Shown here: piece by piece, positions 2,764 to 23,075 of the stretch | How the letters are laid out: every line of letters begins with the position of its first letter | Position numbering within the stretch: position 1 is the first letter of the stretch | DNA from: an uncultured Mycoplasma sp. | GTDB taxonomy: Bacteria; Bacillota_I; Bacilli_A; RF39; UBA660 | Length of the DNA stretch: 34,362 nt | Assembly (NCBI GenBank): GCA_964430375.1 | Contig: CAYSEZ010000002.1 | Location: forward strand, 3,591-37,952 | Direction of reading: 5' to 3' | Position numbers and translations under genes: made by a program | The notes under the pieces: generated by a model | The model's input: only the letters and a program-made list of their open reading frames with translations | Told to the model about the DNA's origin: nothing | Database searches by the model: none

Positions 2764-3804
2764 ATGAATAAAAAAGATTTAATTTTAAATGATAATGAAA
2801 TATCAGAAGTTAATACAATATATAATGATATAAGAGAAAAAGTAATTAATGCTAGATCTAAAATGTTAAAACAAATAGATACTACTATGACTGAAGTATA
2901 TTGGTATGTTGGTAAAACAACGTCAGAATTATTTAATAAAGCTGGCAATGATATATATGGAAAAAAATTAATCGAAGTTTTATCATCTAAATTACAAAAA
3001 GAGTTTGGCAATGGATTTTCTCCTGTTAGTATAAGACGTATGCGTAGATTTTATGAGTATTATCCAATATGGTCGACAGTGTCGACCGAATTGTCATGGG
3101 CTCACTTTCAAGAACTAATTAGGATAGATAGAAAAGAAGAAAGAGATTTTTATGAAGAAGAAACTATAAAATCAAACTGGGGATGTAGAGAACTACGTAG
3201 ACAAATTAATACAAAATTATATGATAGATATTTAATATCTCCAAATAAAAACTTAATTATGAGTGAATCAAAAAAAGATTTAATAGTAAAAGATCCTGAA
3301 GAATTATTAAAAAGTCCATATATTTTTGAGTTCGCAGGATTAAAAGAAAATAGAAATTATTTAGAAAATGATTTAGAAAAAGCATTATTAAATCATTTAA
3401 CAGAATTTTTATTAGAACTTGGTAGAGGATTTTCATTTGTAGCAAATCAACAAAGAATTAAAATAGGAGAAGAATATTATTATCCAGATCTTATCTTTTA
3501 TAATAGACTTGCTAAATGTTTCGTAATAATAGATTTAAAAATAGGTAAACTTTCACATCAAGATATTGGACAGATGCAAATGTATGTAAATTATTATAAG
3601 AAAACACAAATGATTGAAGGAGAAAATGAACCTATTGGGATACTACTTTGTGCAGATAAGGATAATGCAGTAGTAGAAATGACTTTAGGAGATAATGTTA
3701 AAAATATATATGCTTCAAAATATTTAACATATATGCCTTCAAAAGAAGAACTTATTAAAATAATAAAAGAAGAAAGAGAATTATTAGAATTAAATATAGA
3801 ATAA
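2764..3804 (+). CDS. YhcG-like PDDEXK nuclease (DUF1016 family)
   Basis: The N-terminal region has a YWYVGK...RRMRRFYEYY type motif. The C-terminal PD-(D/E)xK core reads YYPDLIFYNRLAKCFVIIDLKIGK. Confidence 0.7.
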   Translation: MNKKDLILNDNEISEVNTIYNDIREKVINARSKMLKQIDTTMTEVYWYVGKTTSELFNKAGNDIYGKKLIEVLSSKLQKEFGNGFSPVSIRRMRRFYEYYPIWSTVSTELSWAHFQELIRIDRKEERDFYEEETIKSNWGCRELRRQINTKLYDRYLISPNKNLIMSESKKDLIVKDPEELLKSPYIFEFAGLKENRNYLENDLEKALLNHLTEFLLELGRGFSFVANQQRIKIGEEYYYPDLIFYNRLAKCFVIIDLKIGKLSHQDIGQMQMYVNYYKKTQMIEGENEPIGILLCADKDNAVVEMTLGDNVKNIYASKYLTYMPSKEELIKIIKEERELLELNIE

Positions 3805-3818
3805 GAAAGGAAATAAAT

Positions 3819-4118
3819 ATGATAATAAACTTAAATAATGAAGATTTTAATGAATTAATAAAAGATAACACAGTAGTAGTAGATTTTTATGCTAATTGGT
3901 GTGGTCCTTGTAAAATGTTAGGACCAGTCCTAGAAGAAATAGCAAAAGAAAAAAATATTAAATTAATAAAGGTAGATGTAGATAAACATGATACTTTAGC
4001 AAGAAATTATGGTGTTATGTCTATACCATATGTATTAATATTTAAAAATGGGGAAATAAGTAATAAATTTATAGGTTATATGCCTAAAAATAGTATATTA
4101 AAAGAATTAGAAAAATAG
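3819..4118 (+). CDS. trxA: Thioredoxin
   Basis: WCGPCK active site in a 99-aa protein. Confidence 0.9.
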   Translation: MIINLNNEDFNELIKDNTVVVDFYANWCGPCKMLGPVLEEIAKEKNIKLIKVDVDKHDTLARNYGVMSIPYVLIFKNGEISNKFIGYMPKNSILKELEK

Positions 4119-4209
4119 TTTACATTTCTAATTTTTTTTAATTTATATTATTGTAAATATAAATTAAATATGATAAAATTATTTTATAAGTAAAGTAGAG
4201 AGTGATTAT

Positions 4210-6072
4210 ATGAAACTAAAGGAAAAATTAAAAGAAAATAAAAATTTAAAAACTATTATTTTAATAATTATAGCTATATTAGTAATAACAGGTATAACAT
4301 ATGCTAGTTTTAATATAAATTTTGAGGGTTTAATAAATATAAAAACTGATAGTCCCTCTATTAGTTTAACATATGAAGAACCTCCAACAGCATTAGAACA
4401 AACTAATTCTATATTAACTAGAGAAGAGTATAAAACAAGTAATGATTATTTTGAATTTAAAGTATCTAGTACTAGTAGTATTATTTATAATTTATATTAT
4501 AATATTTATTTAACTGAAAAAAAAACTAATACTTTATCTAAAGATAATTTATATATTTATTTAACTAAAGTAGATAATAATATTGAAGAAGAAGTATTAG
4601 AACCTACTTTAGTAAGTAGTTTAAAAAAACACTCTAATTATGATAATAGTTATATAATAACTTCTGATACTTTTGAGTTTTTAACTGAAACAAATGAAAC
4701 AAAAGAAATAACATATAGATTAAGAATATGGAATGAACCAAATAATTCATCTGATTCAATAACAATTAAAGGGGGTATATACGAATATACAGTAAATGTA
4801 GATACTTACGAACCAATAACTGGTTTATCAGTAATAAAAAGTCAAGTTAAAACAACAAATATAAGTTATAAATATGTAAATGGCGCAAATAAAACAATAG
4901 ATGGAGTAGCATATAACACAGATGATAATGGAGTATTCCTATATGATGGAACAGATGATAATGGAGGAAGTTATCCAATATATTACTATAGAGGTAATGT
5001 TACAAACAATAATGTAATATTTGGAGGATTCTGTTGGAAGATCGTCAGAACAACATCAACTGGAGGAATAAAACTAGTATATAACGGAACACCATCTAAT
5101 GGAGCATGTAGTAATACAGGAACATCTAGTCAAATTAGTACTAGTGCATTCAGTAGTAGTTATACCTCCCCAGCCTATGTAGGATATATGTATGGAACAG
5201 TATATGAATATAGTAGTAAATCACCAACAGGTACAATAATATATGGAAATGATGTAACATATTCTGATGGAACATATACATTAGTAGATACAACAACATC
5301 AACATCATGGAGTAATGACAGAACAACCCTAGCAAATGGATATCACTATACATGCTTTAGTAGTGATACAACATGTACAAGTGTATATTATATAATATAT
5401 TTTGGTAACTTAAGTACTGCATATTATCTAACATTTACAAATGGAGATAATCTAGATAGTGCAAAGACAAAGATGTATACAAATACAACAAATAGTACAA
5501 TCAAAGCAACAATAGATGATTGGTATAAAACTAATCTAACAAGTTATACAAATTATCTAGAAGATACAATATTCTGTAATGATAGGTCAGATGCAACAAG
5601 CACATCTTATAGTGGCCCTTTAGCAAGTAAAGATACAAATAATGGTTATTCATATTTTAAAAGCTATGAAAACACAGAAAATGGAACGCCAAGCCTAGAA
5701 TGTACAAATCAAAATGATAGATTTAGTTTAAGCACAAATAACGGAGGAACAAGTGGATATGGAAATAATGCATTAACATATCCAGTAGGATTACTAACCT
5801 TAGATGAAGCTGAACTAGCAGGTTCACAGTTTGTATCTAGTCATAGTAATTATTATCTATACACAGGACAATATTTCTGGGTTCTTTCCCCTGCTGGGTG
5901 GGGCAGCGATTGGGCTGACGGTGGTCGTGTGTACTCGAGTGGTGTCCTGGACTGGGTCAACGTGGATGGCAGTGGCGGCGTGCGTCCTGCCGTTTCGCTC
6001 CAACTTGGAACAGAGTTTGAAGCAGGAACAGACGGATCTGCGAGCAATCCATATGTTGTGAAAACTTCGTAA
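4210..6072 (+). CDS. Secreted or anchored surface protein with an N-terminal signal/anchor (KTIILIIIAILVITGITYASFN). Its N-domain is shared with ORF 28719..32402. The C-terminal module YFWVLSP...GVRPAVSL looks lectin-like.
   Basis: Long ORF with an SD (agagagtg) and a charged-then-hydrophobic N-terminus. Motifs shared with the 28719 ORF are TGITYA, NYFEF/NYFDF, LVSSLKKH/LVSSLNKH and YRLRIW/YRLRAW. Confidence 0.8.
   Translation: MKLKEKLKENKNLKTIILIIIAILVITGITYASFNINFEGLINIKTDSPSISLTYEEPPTALEQTNSILTREEYKTSNDYFEFKVSSTSSIIYNLYYNIYLTEKKTNTLSKDNLYIYLTKVDNNIEEEVLEPTLVSSLKKHSNYDNSYIITSDTFEFLTETNETKEITYRLRIWNEPNNSSDSITIKGGIYEYTVNVDTYEPITGLSVIKSQVKTTNISYKYVNGANKTIDGVAYNTDDNGVFLYDGTDDNGGSYPIYYYRGNVTNNNVIFGGFCWKIVRTTSTGGIKLVYNGTPSNGACSNTGTSSQISTSAFSSSYTSPAYVGYMYGTVYEYSSKSPTGTIIYGNDVTYSDGTYTLVDTTTSTSWSNDRTTLANGYHYTCFSSDTTCTSVYYIIYFGNLSTAYYLTFTNGDNLDSAKTKMYTNTTNSTIKATIDDWYKTNLTSYTNYLEDTIFCNDRSDATSTSYSGPLASKDTNNGYSYFKSYENTENGTPSLECTNQNDRFSLSTNNGGTSGYGNNALTYPVGLLTLDEAELAGSQFVSSHSNYYLYTGQYFWVLSPAGWGSDWADGGRVYSSGVLDWVNVDGSGGVRPAVSLQLGTEFEAGTDGSASNPYVVKTS
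5896..5985 (+). other. Candidate DGR-type variable region (VR) inside the 3' end of CDS 4210..6072
   Basis: Of 30 codons, 21 are NNY and the other 9 (ggg, tgg, gtg, tcg, ctg) contain no A. Nt 5881-6000 have A=10/120 and about 63% GC. Every A is at codon position 1 or 2. Confidence 0.45.
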
Positions 6073-19137: not shown

Positions 19138-19194
19138 TTTATCACCTATAACATTTTATGTAATAAAATAATAAAAATAACAAAAAATAATAAT

Positions 19195-21234
19195 ATGAAA
19201 AAGAAGAAAATAACTAATAGAAACTTAACTAAAAATATAAATAAAAAAATAAATATAATAATTATTTTCATTATATTAGTTTTTTCATGTATTTTTTTAA
19301 GAATTTGTTACTTAAATATATTTAGATCATCTTACTATAATATGTTACTTAGTAAGAATACTACTACATATGTATATGGTAAAAGTACTCCAAGAGGTAG
19401 AATATATGATAGAAATTATAATTTATTAGTAGATAATACTTCAGTAAAAAGTATTTATTATAAAAAAAGTAATAATATAACTATAGAAGAAGAAATAGAG
19501 CTTGCTTATACTATAAGTAGTAATATAGATCTTGATTATGATAATTTAAGTATTAGAAATTTAAAAGAATTTTTCTTAATTTTATATCCTGATATAGGTA
19601 ATAATAAAATAACTAATGAAGAATATATAGATTTAGAAAATAGAAAATTATCTAGTGATGATATATATGAACTTAAAATAGATAGAATAACAGATGATGA
19701 TTTAAAAGTATTAAATGAAAATGATAGAAAAGCATCTTATCTTTATTATTTAATGAATAATGGTTATTATTACGATGAAAAAATTATTAAAACAGATGTA
19801 ACTGAAAAAGAATATGCTTTTATAGTAGAAAACTCTGATAAATTAAATGGTTTTTTTACTAAATTAGAATGGGAAAGAGTATATTTATATGATAATACTT
19901 TAAGAGATATATTAGGTAATGTTTCTAGCACGACTTCTGGTATTCCGGAGGAAGATAAAGATTATTATTTAGATAAAGGTTATTCTTTAACTGATAGAGT
20001 AGGAATAAGTGGTTTAGAAAAAGAATATGAAGATATTTTAAAGGGAGAAAAAGCTAAATATGAGGTGCTTGATGATGGTACTTTAAAACTAATAAGTGAA
20101 GGTAAAAAAGGTAATGATATAGTTCTTTCTATTGATATTAATTTACAAGTAGAATTAGAGAAAATGTTAGATGAAGAAATAATAAAAACAAAAAAAGAAG
20201 CTAATACTAGATTCTATAGTGGTAGTTATATAGTAATTCAAAATCCTAATACTGGTGAAATATATTCTATGGTAGGAAGAAGTATTAATAAAAATAAAAT
20301 ATATGATAATAGTATAGGTAATATTATGACTAATGTAACACCTGGTTCTGTTGTAAAAGGAGCCTCAATAATTGTGGGATACAATACTAAAGTAATAGAT
20401 ATAGGTACTACTATGGAAGATAAATGTATTAAGTTATATAATTTACCTTTAAAATGTTCTTGGACAACACTTGGCAAAGTAAATGATATTGAAGCACTTG
20501 CTAGATCTAGTAATGTTTATCAATATAAAATAGCAATGATGGTCGGAGGTTTTGATTATAAATATGGTAAAAAATTAGTTATAGATGAGAAAGCATTTGA
20601 TATATATAGAAATGTATTTTATCAGTTTGGACTTGGTGTATCTACTGGTATTGACTATCCAATGGAAGAGATAGGTTATAAAGGAACAAGTACAGCGGGA
20701 GACTTACTTATTAACTTTTCAATAGGTCAATATGATACTTATACTCCGATACAGTTGTCACAATATATATCTACTATTGCAAATGGTGGTAATAGAATAA
20801 AACCTCATTTTTTAAAAGAAGTAATAGATGATAATAAAGATAAATTATATGAAGTAAGTCCTCTTATATTAAATAAAGTAGAAACAGAAGAAAAGTATAT
20901 AAAAAGAGTACAAGAAGGATTTAAGAAAGTAATGAGTACAGGCACAGGAAGATTTGGATATATGGGAAGTACTAAAAATCCGGCAGGTAAAACAGGTACT
21001 AGTGAAAGTTTTATTGATGTAGATGGTGATGGAGTAATAGATTATGAAACAGTCACTAATAACTTTGTAGGATATGCTCCATATGATAATCCAGTTATGT
21101 CTATTGTAGTATCATCTCCACATGTGCAAGATCCTAATTCTGGTACTTATAAATCAGATGTAAATTTAAGAGTATCAAAAAAAGCTTCTAATATATTTTT
21201 TAAATATTATGATTACAATGGAAATAGAAGGTAA
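19195..21234 (+). CDS. Class B penicillin-binding protein (PBP2B/FtsI-like transpeptidase)
   Basis: N-terminal TM segment plus SVVK (SxxK), SSN (SxN) and KTGT motifs. Confidence 0.88.
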   Translation: MKKKKITNRNLTKNINKKINIIIIFIILVFSCIFLRICYLNIFRSSYYNMLLSKNTTTYVYGKSTPRGRIYDRNYNLLVDNTSVKSIYYKKSNNITIEEEIELAYTISSNIDLDYDNLSIRNLKEFFLILYPDIGNNKITNEEYIDLENRKLSSDDIYELKIDRITDDDLKVLNENDRKASYLYYLMNNGYYYDEKIIKTDVTEKEYAFIVENSDKLNGFFTKLEWERVYLYDNTLRDILGNVSSTTSGIPEEDKDYYLDKGYSLTDRVGISGLEKEYEDILKGEKAKYEVLDDGTLKLISEGKKGNDIVLSIDINLQVELEKMLDEEIIKTKKEANTRFYSGSYIVIQNPNTGEIYSMVGRSINKNKIYDNSIGNIMTNVTPGSVVKGASIIVGYNTKVIDIGTTMEDKCIKLYNLPLKCSWTTLGKVNDIEALARSSNVYQYKIAMMVGGFDYKYGKKLVIDEKAFDIYRNVFYQFGLGVSTGIDYPMEEIGYKGTSTAGDLLINFSIGQYDTYTPIQLSQYISTIANGGNRIKPHFLKEVIDDNKDKLYEVSPLILNKVETEEKYIKRVQEGFKKVMSTGTGRFGYMGSTKNPAGKTGTSESFIDVDGDGVIDYETVTNNFVGYAPYDNPVMSIVVSSPHVQDPNSGTYKSDVNLRVSKKASNIFFKYYDYNGNRR

Positions 21235-21271
21235 TATGTATAATATAAATATTTTTGGAAATTTTTGGATA

Positions 21272-21300
21272 TAGACAAAATCTTAAAAATATGGTATTAT
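21272..21300 (+). promoter_or_regulatory. Promoter of antisense sRNA copy 1
   Basis: TAGACA, a 17-nt spacer, then TGgTATTAT (extended -10). The same box recurs at 21616-21644 and 21978-22005. Confidence 0.6.
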
Positions 21301-21306
21301 GTATAC

Positions 21307-21410
21307 AGATGAGAGATATCTCATATAATAAAAAAGGAACACTTAGTATTACAGTGTTAAGTGTTACCAATAAATGGGGTGTCACCTAACATAAGTTAGG
21401 TGACTTTTAA
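21307..21410 (+). ncRNA. Candidate type I antitoxin sRNA 1 (about 100 nt), convergent with and overlapping the 3' end of the peptide-1 mRNA
   Basis: It starts about 7 nt after the -10 box. It has a hairpin atgaga-gata-tctcat and a hairpin aacactta...taagtgtt. The terminator is gtcacctaac-ataa-gttaggtgac followed by TTTT (21381-21408). Confidence 0.55.
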
Positions 21411-21419
21411 AAATAAATT

Positions 21420-21485
21420 TTATATTATAATTAAAAGAATGATAATTACTAATAAAATTAAGATTAAAAAATCTTTTTTACCCAT
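21420..21485 (-). CDS. 21-aa hydrophobic peptide MGKKDFLILILLVIIILLIII, a candidate type I toxin
   Basis: ATG with SD GAGGTGG at a 5-nt spacing. It has a single predicted TM helix and its own promoter and terminators. Confidence 0.55.
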   Translation of the reverse strand: MGKKDFLILILLVIIILLIII

Positions 21486-21493
21486 AACTACCA

Positions 21494-21518
21494 CCTCACT
21501 TTCTATAAAAAAGTAAGG
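21494..21518 (-). promoter_or_regulatory. SD-sequestering hairpin in the 5' UTR of the peptide-1 mRNA
   Basis: On the minus-strand RNA, CCUUACUUU pairs with AAAGUGAGG (9 bp, one G-U). The 3' arm contains the SD. The same structure occurs in copy 2 (about 21854-21878). Confidence 0.5.
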
Positions 21519-21549
21519 TAACACCTAACTACCAAGTGTTCGTAAACTA

Positions 21550-21578
21550 ATTGTACCAAATATAACTACCTAATACAA
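21550..21578 (-). promoter_or_regulatory. Promoter of the peptide-1 (toxin) mRNA
   Basis: The minus strand reads TTGTAT, a 17-nt spacer, then TGgTACAAT. An identical box for copy 2 lies at 21912-21940. Confidence 0.55.
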
Positions 21579-21650
21579 GTGAAATTATCGAAAAATAATT
21601 GGTAATTTTTGGATATAGACAAAATCTTAAAAATATGTTATTATGTATAC

Positions 21651-21762
21651 AGGTGAGAGATATCTCATATAATAAAAAAGGAACACTTGATATTAGCATG
21701 TTAAGTGTTACCTATAAATGGTTTCACCTAATTCAAAACTAATTTTGAGTTAGGTATTTTTC
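21651..21762 (+). ncRNA. Candidate type I antitoxin sRNA 2
   Basis: Promoter at 21616-21644 and the same two 5' hairpins as sRNA 1. The terminator is a 13-bp stem (21726-21755) followed by a T-run, and it abuts the stop codon of peptide 2. Confidence 0.55.
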
Positions 21763-21764
21763 TT

Positions 21765-21848
21765 TTATATCAATACTATTGTTAGTATAAATAGCAAAAA
21801 GAAGATAATGATAAATAAAGCAAAAATTAATAAATTTTTTCTATTCAC
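21765..21848 (-). CDS. 27-aa hydrophobic peptide (GTG start) MNRKNLLIFALFIIIFFLLFILTIVLI, a candidate type I toxin
   Basis: The SD GAGGTGG and spacing match copy 1. It has a single TM helix and a conserved 5' UTR and promoter. Confidence 0.5.
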   Translation of the reverse strand: MNRKNLLIFALFIIIFFLLFILTIVLI

Positions 21849-22042
21849 ACTACCACCTCACTTTCTATAAAAAAGTAAGGCAACACCTAACTACCAAGTG
21901 TTCGTAAACTAATTGTACCAAATATAACTACCTAATACAAGTGAAATTATCGAAAAATAATTGGTAATTTTTGGATATAGACAAAATCTTAAAATATGTT
22001 ATTATGTGTACAGATGAGAGATATCTCATATAATAAAAAAGG
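21849..22042. repeat. Conserved divergent-promoter block, copy C
   Basis: See 21489..21721. The rightward promoter has a 16-nt spacer because one A is deleted. Confidence 0.8.
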
Positions 22043-22128
22043 ATAGTGTATATTATTCTTAAAAGATAGAATATAATAATATTTAAAATAATAATACAGG
22101 TTTTTAGATCTGTATTATTATTTTAAAT
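22012..22128 (+). ncRNA. Orphan third sRNA copy. It keeps the promoter and first hairpin, but the body has diverged and no peptide gene lies opposite.
   Basis: Promoter at 21978-22005 and the hairpin atgaga-gata-tctcat. It ends at a perfect 15-bp AT-rich hairpin (22085-22124). Confidence 0.4.
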
Positions 22129-22140
22129 ATCGCCTTTTGA

Positions 22141-22188
22141 TAAAAAATAAAAGATACTTATGTGAGTCTTCCTTGATAAGTATCTTTT
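22141..22188 (-). terminator. Terminator of the radical SAM gene, overlapping its stop codon
   Basis: The stem aaagatacttat/ataagtatcttt is followed on the minus strand by tatttttta. Confidence 0.5.
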
Positions 22189-23075
22189 TCTTTCATTTTT
22201 TTATCTATATCATTTAATACACAAAACTTTTTTATAAGCCAAGTAGGTTCTACTAAATCTTCTTTGATTGGATCACCAGTAATTCTATTAATAACTATAT
22301 CTTCATTTAATAATTCTAACTGATTTATTACTATATCTATATATTCCTCTTTTGTTAATATATGAAAGTTTTTTTCTTTATACATTTTTTCTATTTTAGT
22401 ACCTTTTAAAATATGTAACATATGTATTTTGATACCATCTATTTTTAAATTATTTAAATATTTTACAGTTTCAATCATCATTTCTTTTGTTTCATATGGA
22501 AGTCCATTTATAATATGCACAACTACTTTAATATTATTATCTTTTAATCTCTTATAACAATTATAAAATTCTTCTAAAGTATGACCTCTGTTGATTAATT
22601 TAGATGTTTTTTCATGTATTGTTTGAAGTCCTAATTCAATAGTTAAATCAGTTTTATTATTTAAATCAATTAACATTTCTAAACACTCATCACTTATTGC
22701 ATCACATCTAGTAGCAATATTAATACCTATTACATTATCATAAGTTAAAACTTCATAGAAATTCTTCCTTAAATAATCTATGTTTCCATATGTATTAGTA
22801 TTAGACTGAAAATATGCAATGTATTTAGCGTCTTTCCATTTTTTATGAAGTATTTCTTTGTTTTTATTAAATTGTTCTTTTATACTTTTTCTTTTATCAG
22901 AAGAAGAACTACCATTTTTACAATAAATACAACCTCCATATCCTTTTGTACCATCTATATTGGGACAAGTAAGTCCTAAATCTAGTGTTACTTTAAATAC
23001 TTTAGTATTATATTTATTTTTATAATAATAATCTAATGTATGATATCTTTTATTATCATATGAATATTTAAACAT
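22158..23075 (-). CDS. TIGR01212-family radical SAM protein (YhcC-like)
   Basis: Motifs YHTLDYYYKNKY..KVFKV.LD.G.TCPN.DG..G.GGCIYC and a length of 305 aa. Confidence 0.75.
   Translation of the reverse strand: MFKYSYDNKRYHTLDYYYKNKYNTKVFKVTLDLGLTCPNIDGTKGYGGCIYCKNGSSSSDKRKSIKEQFNKNKEILHKKWKDAKYIAYFQSNTNTYGNIDYLRKNFYEVLTYDNVIGINIATRCDAISDECLEMLIDLNNKTDLTIELGLQTIHEKTSKLINRGHTLEEFYNCYKRLKDNNIKVVVHIINGLPYETKEMMIETVKYLNNLKIDGIKIHMLHILKGTKIEKMYKEKNFHILTKEEYIDIVINQLELLNEDIVINRITGDPIKEDLVEPTWLIKKFCVLNDIDKKMKEKDTYQGRLT

Follow-up and report, generated by a model that had tools for sequence, protein, structure and literature searches.

The window analysed here, a stretch of 34,362 nucleotides from an uncultured Mycoplasma sp. 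with a GC content of ~23%, contains two tandem modules, each of which probably constitutes a candidate type I toxin-antitoxin (TA)-like pair of a previously undescribed family. The modules reside in the 923 bp (21235-22157) that separate the genes of PBP2B (19195-21234, plus strand) and of a radical SAM protein (22158-23075, minus strand), where they form a repeated unit of ~345-362 bp. Each module combines the constituents of the type I class, namely a small (<60 aa) hydrophobic open reading frame (ORF) with its own Shine-Dalgarno sequence (SD) and promoter, and a separate gene for an antisense small RNA (sRNA) equipped with its own promoter and terminator. Judged from sequence comparison, it is very likely that both RNAs and the peptide are functional. 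A preliminary description of the same DNA had proposed candidate members of a new type I TA family, in which the transcripts converge and have overlapping 3' ends, and this proposal is now supported by comparative evidence. The features of the two complete modules, A and B, and of a partial third unit are listed below, where SL refers to the stem-loops of the sRNA and closing helix to a predicted pairing between the two ends of the peptide mRNA.

21272-21300, plus strand: sRNA-A promoter (TAGACA, 17-nt spacer, TG-extended TATTAT), recognized from sequence, its boxes being kept in homologues.
21305-21409, plus strand: putative sRNA-A, ~104 nt, defined by its fold and the family consensus structure, with SL1 (21309-21324), an A-rich linker (21325-21335) and SL2 (21336-21368).
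21381-21404, plus strand: SL3, the predicted terminator of sRNA-A, followed by a T-run (21405-21408).
21420-21485, minus strand: gene of peptide A (ATG start, 21 aa, MGKKDFLILILLVIIILLIII), an ORF of the MxKKDF-plus-hydrophobic family.
21491-21497, minus strand: SD of peptide A (GAGGTGG) with the ATG 5 nt downstream; an SD is found in all intact homologues.
21494-21518, minus strand: predicted SD-masking hairpin of mRNA-A (CCUUACUUUUU / AGAAAGUGAGG), with a probability of 0.04 for the SD to be unpaired.
21519-21541, minus strand: 5' arm of the closing helix of mRNA-A, from fold and covariation.
21337-21367, minus strand: 3' arm of the closing helix of mRNA-A, the complement of SL2 of sRNA-A, followed by a U-run (21335-21330).
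21550-21578, minus strand: promoter of the peptide-A mRNA (TTGTAT, 17-nt spacer, TG-extended TACAAT), recognized from sequence.
21328-21545, minus strand: predicted peptide-A mRNA, ~218 nt, bounded by promoter and U-run and consistent with its minimum free energy (MFE) fold.
21616-21644, plus strand: sRNA-B promoter (TAGACA-17-TGnTATTAT), recognized from sequence.
21649-21765, plus strand: putative sRNA-B, ~115 nt, from terminator scan, fold and covariation, with SL1 (21653-21668), SL2 (21680-21712) and a terminator with T-run (21726-21755).
21765-21848, minus strand: gene of peptide B (GTG start, 27 aa, MNRKNLLIFALFIIIFFLLFILTIVLI), identified as ORF.
21853-21859, minus strand: SD of peptide B (GAGGTGG).
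21856-21903, minus strand: leader of mRNA-B, with the predicted SD-masking hairpin (21856-21880) and the 5' arm of the closing helix (21881-21903).
21681-21711, minus strand: predicted 3' arm of the closing helix of mRNA-B.
21912-21940, minus strand: promoter of the peptide-B mRNA (TTGTAT-17-TGgTACAAT), within a block 99% identical to copy A.
21672-21907, minus strand: predicted peptide-B mRNA, ~236 nt, from its fold.
21978-22043, plus strand: third sRNA promoter (TAGACA, 16-nt spacer, TATTAT) with SL1 and A-run only, a partial terminal unit.

Both minus-strand leaders are ~57-60 nt long. The terminator hairpins of the sRNAs comprise 10 bp (A) and 13 bp (B), are followed by T-runs and are located 0-10 nt from the peptide stop codons, and the predicted overlap between sRNA and mRNA amounts to ~80 nt. 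The hairpins of 10-13 bp with T-run next to the stop codon and the extent of the overlap had both been anticipated in the preliminary description. The same applies to the promoters TTGTAT-17-TGgTACAAT (21578-21550 and 21940-21912) and TAGACA-17-TGnTATTAT (21272-21300 and 21616-21644), the GAGGTGG motifs (21497-21491 and 21859-21853) and the tiny hydrophobic ORFs at 21420-21485 and, with a GTG start, at 21765-21848, whose coordinates agree with ours. Its count of two copies holds for full modules but missed the third plus-strand promoter with its 5' hairpin (21978-22043), a unit that has no peptide partner and whose sequence diverges past the A-run. The description also lacked the closing helix between 5' and 3' end and the SD-masking hairpin. 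Its claim that the gap is devoid of credible ORFs of 60 aa or more is right in substance, although a 61-aa ORF does exist (21200-21385, minus strand), which reads through the sRNA gene and is spurious.

In the 34-kb window, no ORFs of 15-45 codons other than those of peptides A and B have an SD and a start codon together with a hydrophobic stretch of 14 residues or more, and with the same criteria Markov-1 random sequences contain 0.01 ORFs. A chance origin of the two peptide ORFs is excluded, and no repeat blocks are expected by chance. A 146-nt block that extends from the SD through the leader and mRNA promoter to the next sRNA promoter (21487-21632 compared to 21849-21994) is 99% identical between copies (~98% had been stated for the regulatory blocks), whereas the identity drops to 89% in the sRNA body. 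Since these 99%-identical blocks adjoin cassettes of peptide ORF and SL2-SL3 that are far more diverged, the sequences suggest gene conversion of the regulatory block or a swapping of toxin cassettes.

Relatives were found with translations of the conserved non-coding block, which were used to search protein databases for ORFs that had been called spuriously through homologous DNA; this led to the proteins P0121-P0133 and from there to gut-metagenome contigs (L043-L055), among them a Hadza human-gut assembly (L049) and a contig carrying the sporulation genes SpoIIP and GPR (L050). The route may be reusable and found homologues that were missed by DNA pattern scans: exact scans of genome and metagenome contigs with a 19-mer and an 18-mer of SL1 returned a single true homologue (L002, a metagenome-assembled genome (MAG) labelled uncultured Mycoplasma sp.), the other matches being due to chance. 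With a profile of the sRNA gene, nhmmer detected 24 copies, of which three are those of the window and 21 are spread over 13 contigs. Several of the 21 represent the same locus from different samples, and we count ~20 homologous modules. Named relatives are MAGs of uncultured 'Bacilli bacterium', and an exact search for the two flanking proteins of the window, PBP2B and radical SAM, returned no record.

In every intact module, an SD is located 4-10 nt before the start codon of an ORF of 21-33 codons on the strand opposite to the sRNA gene. The encoded peptides (for example MNKKDFLIFALVIIIFFLLSLLLITLI, MSKKDFLITSLIIIIVLLIIFD, MSKRELSLYIIILLLFFVIITLLYK and MSKKDYTIIFQNFIILLLLLIIILLIIK) follow the consensus M-[NSTG]-K-[KR]-[DE]-[FYL] succeeded by 17-27 hydrophobic residues and often by a single terminal K, R or D. 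About a dozen diverged modules have retained the two promoters as well as SD, start codon and reading frame, and in homologues the sigma-70-type boxes are found at the same distance from the leader. A profile search that included over-extended ORF calls, where the SD reads as 'KGGD' and the leader as 'GTFNSWV', added at least a dozen further distinct members, none of which is named. No meaningful match of the peptides or their profile was found in Pfam, NCBIfam and PDB sequences, the preliminary description had likewise not recognized them as a named toxin family, and a literature search for their N-terminal motifs retrieved no paper. In Rfam, the whole window matched only tRNA at the gathering score, and the region 21100-22300 gave only noise at E<10. 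The lack of a match in Rfam, Pfam and NCBIfam argues against the family being one of the type I families for which models exist.

A functional role of the sRNA is supported by the covariation of its sequence in an alignment of 14 non-redundant copies. The molecule consists of SL1, which is located 3-4 nt from the predicted transcription start and mostly contains a GAAA loop, the A-rich linker, SL2, and SL3 with its U-run. In the consensus structure, 97% of cells are paired, compared to 29-41% if the partners are slid, and 12 of 24 pairs are compensatory, showing double changes. None of 500 shuffled alignments reached the observed paired percentage, the number of double-change cells or the covariation score, and six of 500 reached the observed count of pairs with a double change. 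In SL2, G·U exceeds A·C by 26 to 2 when read on the plus strand, which implies that this structure is selected on the plus-strand RNA and not on its complement. The -35 and -10 boxes of the sRNA promoter are fixed in position in all homologous modules, with variable sequences in the spacers.

A second conserved structure appears on the opposite strand. For all 12 reconstructed mRNAs, the MFE fold contains the closing helix, with leader nucleotides ~3-28 paired to the ~45 nt in front of the terminal U-run. When assessed in an alignment of 11 leader and 3'-end pairs, this helix is 90.5% paired compared to 33-46% after sliding, and 16 of its 24 pairs are compensatory, which was not equaled in any of 500 shuffles. 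In the seven modules examined for this, it is predicted to contribute between -12 and -30 kcal/mol. On the mRNA strand, G·U prevails over A·C by 26 to 6, and these counts show that SL2 (26:2 on the plus strand) and the closing helix (26:6 on the minus strand) are each selected on their own strand. By comparison, pairing in the local 3' hairpin of the mRNA strand reaches only 76.5% across the family, and the sequence aacactt...aagtgtt, which had originally been assigned to a local hairpin at the mRNA end, is better described as 3' arm of the closing helix. A local hairpin of the 5' leader (AACACUU/AGGUGUU), which was also considered, has no covariation support. All 12 leaders are predicted to form, in the segment from the closing helix to the start codon, a hairpin that involves the SD despite quite different sequences, with probabilities for an unpaired SD of 0.005-0.26 in 10 of the 12 modules and 0.03-0.04 in the two from the window. 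The closing helix, which ends exactly at the conserved U-run, might itself serve as terminator stem of the toxin mRNA, a possibility that we rate as low and that draws on the contrast between the weak, 76.5%-paired local hairpin and the 90.5%-paired long-distance helix with its 16 compensatory pairs. In that case, termination and the locking of both ends would be one and the same event. SL2 is necessarily identical in sequence to the leader arm, and on this less likely view the sRNA would work as a mimic of the leader, which could either displace this strand from the closing helix or prevent the helix from forming during transcription.

The modules form an accessory insertion as judged by comparison with relatives, since two contigs with PBP2B homologues of 86% identity (Logan contigs L038 and L039) contain the same neighbours with only 71 bp between the PBP2B and radical SAM genes. 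A trace of the module was sought within 10 kb in both contigs, and none was found. In more distant relatives, other genes follow PBP2B. Together with the tandem copies and with imperfect inverted repeats ~175-200 bp apart, this insertion would be compatible with a miniature mobile or repeat element similar to miniature inverted-repeat transposable elements or repetitive extragenic palindromes, whose terminal repeats act at the level of DNA and whose ORFs and promoters are incidental. We regard such an origin as highly improbable. G·U exceeds A·C in SL2 and in the closing helix, each time on the opposite strand, which is a signature of selection on RNA rather than DNA, and the promoters, SD, start codon and frame are kept across diverged members. 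Moreover, no transposase is found nearby. Scans of viral contigs with five patterns revealed nothing related, the leader pattern matching only unrelated SD regions, and neither a blastn search of phage and plasmid collections with the block and a diverged member nor a search of IMG/VR returned a match to the module.

The described features suggest a mechanism of the candidate TA pair, in which transcription, the involvement of an RNase, the toxicity of the peptide and its neutralization by the sRNA are all inferred from sequence. A moderate promoter on the minus strand would drive expression of an mRNA of ~220-240 nt encoding a peptide of 21-33 aa, with a charged N-terminus (M-x-K-K-D) preceding a single hydrophobic helix. 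This mRNA is predicted to be doubly locked by the closing helix between its 5' and 3' ends and by the leader hairpin masking the SD. From the strong TG-extended promoter on the plus strand, an sRNA of ~105-120 nt with three stem-loops would be transcribed that is perfectly complementary to the 3' untranslated region (UTR) of the mRNA. By its position, it is antisense to the whole ~80-nt 3' UTR, from near the stop codon to the U-run, and the predicted net gain of cofolding upon its binding amounts to -69 to -95 kcal/mol. Because the sRNA covers the 3' arm of the closing helix, its binding and the formation of this helix are mutually exclusive. Initial contact would presumably occur with the exposed mRNA hairpin that mirrors the SL3 terminator, from where the sRNA might invade the closing helix. 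The resulting long duplex could be cut by RNase III, exposing the ends of the mRNA to decay. The sRNA may also tighten the masking of the SD, as SR4 does on bsrG. Upon loss of the sRNA, the peptide would be produced, insert into the membrane and harm the cell. The model that best agrees with our analysis would thus be a decay via the 3' duplex of the RNase III type found in txpA/RatA and bsrG/SR4, to which the opening of the protective closing helix, and possibly a tighter masking of the SD, would add.

An alternative is suggested by the 5' domain of the sRNA (SL1 and AAUAAAAAAGG), which is located outside the overlap and is nevertheless the most conserved part of the module, and by partial units of promoter and SL1 that persist at the ends of arrays. 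The sRNA could thus act mainly in trans, or its 5' domain could target the ribosome-binding region of the peptide as described for SprA1AS or RNA II, with the 3' overlap being secondary. Pairing of this domain with the SD region is possible in module A of the window (z = -2.5), whereas no conserved complementarity to the start region was detected in the other 11 modules (z of -0.85 to +0.7), and a mechanism of the SprA1AS or RNA II type is consequently not supported. As the conserved A-run is accounted for as complement of the U-run in the mRNA terminator, and SL2 and SL3, which make up the overlap, co-vary with the cognate mRNA, we find this alternative very unlikely.

The comparison with known families was based on Rfam, Pfam and NCBIfam models and on published descriptions, including the 24 type I families whose layouts are compiled in the T1TAdb paper (PMC8594479). 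Closest in logic are bsrG/SR4 and the related txpA/RatA, bsrE/SR5 and yonT/SR6 of B. subtilis, which share convergent genes, RNAs with complementary 3' ends, a hydrophobic peptide of small size, an SD that is masked in part and an antitoxin with multiple stem-loops. The convergent layout with 3'-3' overlap of the TxpA/RatA and BsrG/SR4-type families is predicted in the window, with a shorter overlap, but none of their Rfam or protein-family models matches in 21100-22300. SR4 binds the bsrG mRNA at the 3' part of its main helix P1, thereby remodelling the 5' region of the mRNA (PMC6562991), and this targeting of the 3' strand of P1 is paralleled here by the complementarity of the sRNA to the closing helix's 3' arm. 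In contrast, peptide and RNA show no similarity in sequence or models to bsrG/SR4, and the overlap of ~80 nt ends at the stop codon instead of encompassing 100-140 bp (PMC6562991). The overlaps of the B. subtilis pairs also extend into the ORF (PMC8594479), which is excluded in the window. The charges of the peptide are located at its N-terminus rather than its C-terminus, and the genes are organized in chromosomal tandem arrays rather than in prophage islands.

The par system (fst/RNA II) of the E. faecalis plasmid pAD1 resembles our modules in its convergent promoters, the 5' stem-loop masking the SD, the N-terminal charges of the peptide, a helix sequestering the toxin mRNA at its extreme 5' end (PMC7472228) and an antisense RNA that leaves the ORF uncovered (PMC8594479). 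The intramolecular helices of par over the SD (5'-SL) and the 5' end (5'-UH) thus have analogous counterparts here, without similarity in sequence. However, the modules do not share a bidirectional terminator but contain two separate terminators ~75-80 nt apart, they lack both the DRa/DRb direct repeats and a conserved 5'-5' complementarity, and the repeats between leader and sRNA gene are inverted. The peptides neither carry the PXXXG motif of Fst, with no Pro/Gly motif in the alignment, nor its charged C-terminal tail, and no match of the window peptides to the Fst/Ldr superfamily was found in Pfam, NCBIfam or PDB sequences. Toxin mRNAs that are inert due to long-distance pairing between 5' and 3' ends, and a metastable masking of the SD, are also known from hok/Sok and AapA1/IsoA1, where the antisense RNA targets the 5' or translation-start region instead of the 3' arm. 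In addition, hok requires the mok leader ORF and 3' processing, and both are Gram-negative families of unrelated sequence. Finally, Ibs/Sib and Ldr/Rdl of E. coli share with our modules very short and almost purely hydrophobic peptides (~19 aa in Ibs) without charged tail, and diverged copies in tandem or dispersed, each with its own cognate antisense RNA. They differ in their unrelated sequences and Gram-negative hosts, and Sib spans the entire ibs ORF, whereas the sRNA described here covers only the 3' UTR.

Tandem arrays were also found in other members, with six copies at a period of ~375 bp in L048 and two in L049, while L054 contains one full unit and a terminal stub (1592-1656) that resembles the third copy in the window. 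At least three times, the sRNA gene has remained intact next to a peptide gene that is inactivated. The homologue in L002 (6440-6560) has kept the sRNA gene and most peptide codons (…KNLLIFSLIIIILLLLVIIIKLI) without start codon, SD, leader or recognizable promoter. Compared to L049, L052 and L053, a deletion of 61 nt has removed the start codon, the SD and part of the leader in L050 and L051, with the sRNA gene being intact, and copy 4 of L048 has an in-frame TAA at codon 11. These three inactivations are independent of each other and hint, if only indirectly, at a toxic peptide. The peptide gene of L055 appears frameshifted, in a contig with a coverage of only 1.3x.

The conservation of both RNAs and of the peptide would also be compatible with a non-toxic product, and many small membrane proteins of Gram-positive bacteria are not toxins. 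The product could instead be a harmless membrane peptide, acting as regulator or accessory subunit, whose synthesis is tuned by a cis-antisense RNA outside the context of a TA pair, which we consider unlikely. This explanation, and with it several points that weigh against a TA pair or against our view of its regulation, deserves attention. The peptides lack the charged C-terminal tail that is typical of most Gram-positive type I toxins (PMC6563280). Short hydrophobic ORFs easily arise at a GC content of 23%, as exemplified by the one at 19146-19271, and composition alone is for this reason weak evidence. The sequences in the covariation alignments account for only about eight independent lineages. 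With the overlap bound, the SD is predicted to become less accessible in 8 of 12 modules and more accessible in 2, with no change in the other 2, a weak and inconsistent trend that is only suggestive of an SR4-like tightening of SD masking. Finally, the mRNAs of several members contain a local terminator hairpin of low stability (-3 to -4.5 kcal/mol), which makes the 3' end of this transcript uncertain. In favour of a TA pair and not of a harmless peptide, small proteins with housekeeping roles seldom occur as two to six diverged copies in a tandem array, the modules are absent from close relatives, the peptide gene was repeatedly lost next to a retained sRNA gene, and the double lock on translation by the closing helix and the SD hairpin is typical of toxin mRNAs.

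Several additional observations concern the arrays and their surroundings. In L048, an array of at least six modules occupies 3700-5623, with the contig end falling within copy 6. Copies 1-3 belong to a near-identical divergent subtype (peptide MSKRELSLYIIILLLFFVIITLLYK) in which SL2 and the leader have both changed to GAUACAUUUGA..., and copy 5 represents a third subtype. Around 4600-5250, strains of one species differ by carrying two modules (L049) or one (L050 and L051). The stubs of promoter and SL1 in the third copy of the window and in L054 (1592-1656) are both aimed at a convergent neighbouring gene. A transcript from the promoter at 21978 would enter a perfect 21-bp inverted repeat (22079-22099 / 22110-22130), beyond which a hairpin (22144-22193) spanning the radical SAM stop codon resembles a bidirectional terminator. 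The 5' region of the sRNA contains a second promoter-like match (TATACA/TGTACA-16-TATAAT at 21302-21329, 21646-21673 and 22007-22034) that, if used, would place the RNA start right at SL2; it is perhaps fortuitous as it overlaps with SL1, whose covariation argues for a role as RNA. The very hydrophobic ORF at 19146-19271 (41 aa, minus strand) lies antisense to the PBP2B gene at its Lys-rich 5' end and most likely arose as a side effect of AT-rich coding sequence. In a relative of 80% identity (L040, 1-6313 and 12145-13083), conjugation genes (TraG/VirD4-like and TrbL-like) are located ~2 kb upstream of the PBP2B region, and a PD-(D/E)XK Rpn-like gene follows PBP2B in place of the radical SAM gene. 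The presence of a different gene at this position suggests that the junction downstream of PBP2B is prone to rearrangement. In L002, an IstB/DnaC-like ATPase gene (4490-5467) is found near the module.

Collectively, the modules would add an unannotated and well-defined family to the type I TA class, whose hosts are uncultured and very AT-rich gut Bacilli, a lineage for which, to our knowledge, no type I TA system has been described. The covariation-based RNA models obtained for both partners are rare among type I systems found by computation. With about a dozen diverged triplets of leader, 3' arm and sRNA, and with as many as six cognate pairs arrayed in a single genome, the family offers natural variants to study the competition between the antisense RNA and the closing helix. 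Its peptides, with N-terminal charges and a length that places them among the shortest candidate toxins, would be useful for investigating how such molecules act on the membrane.

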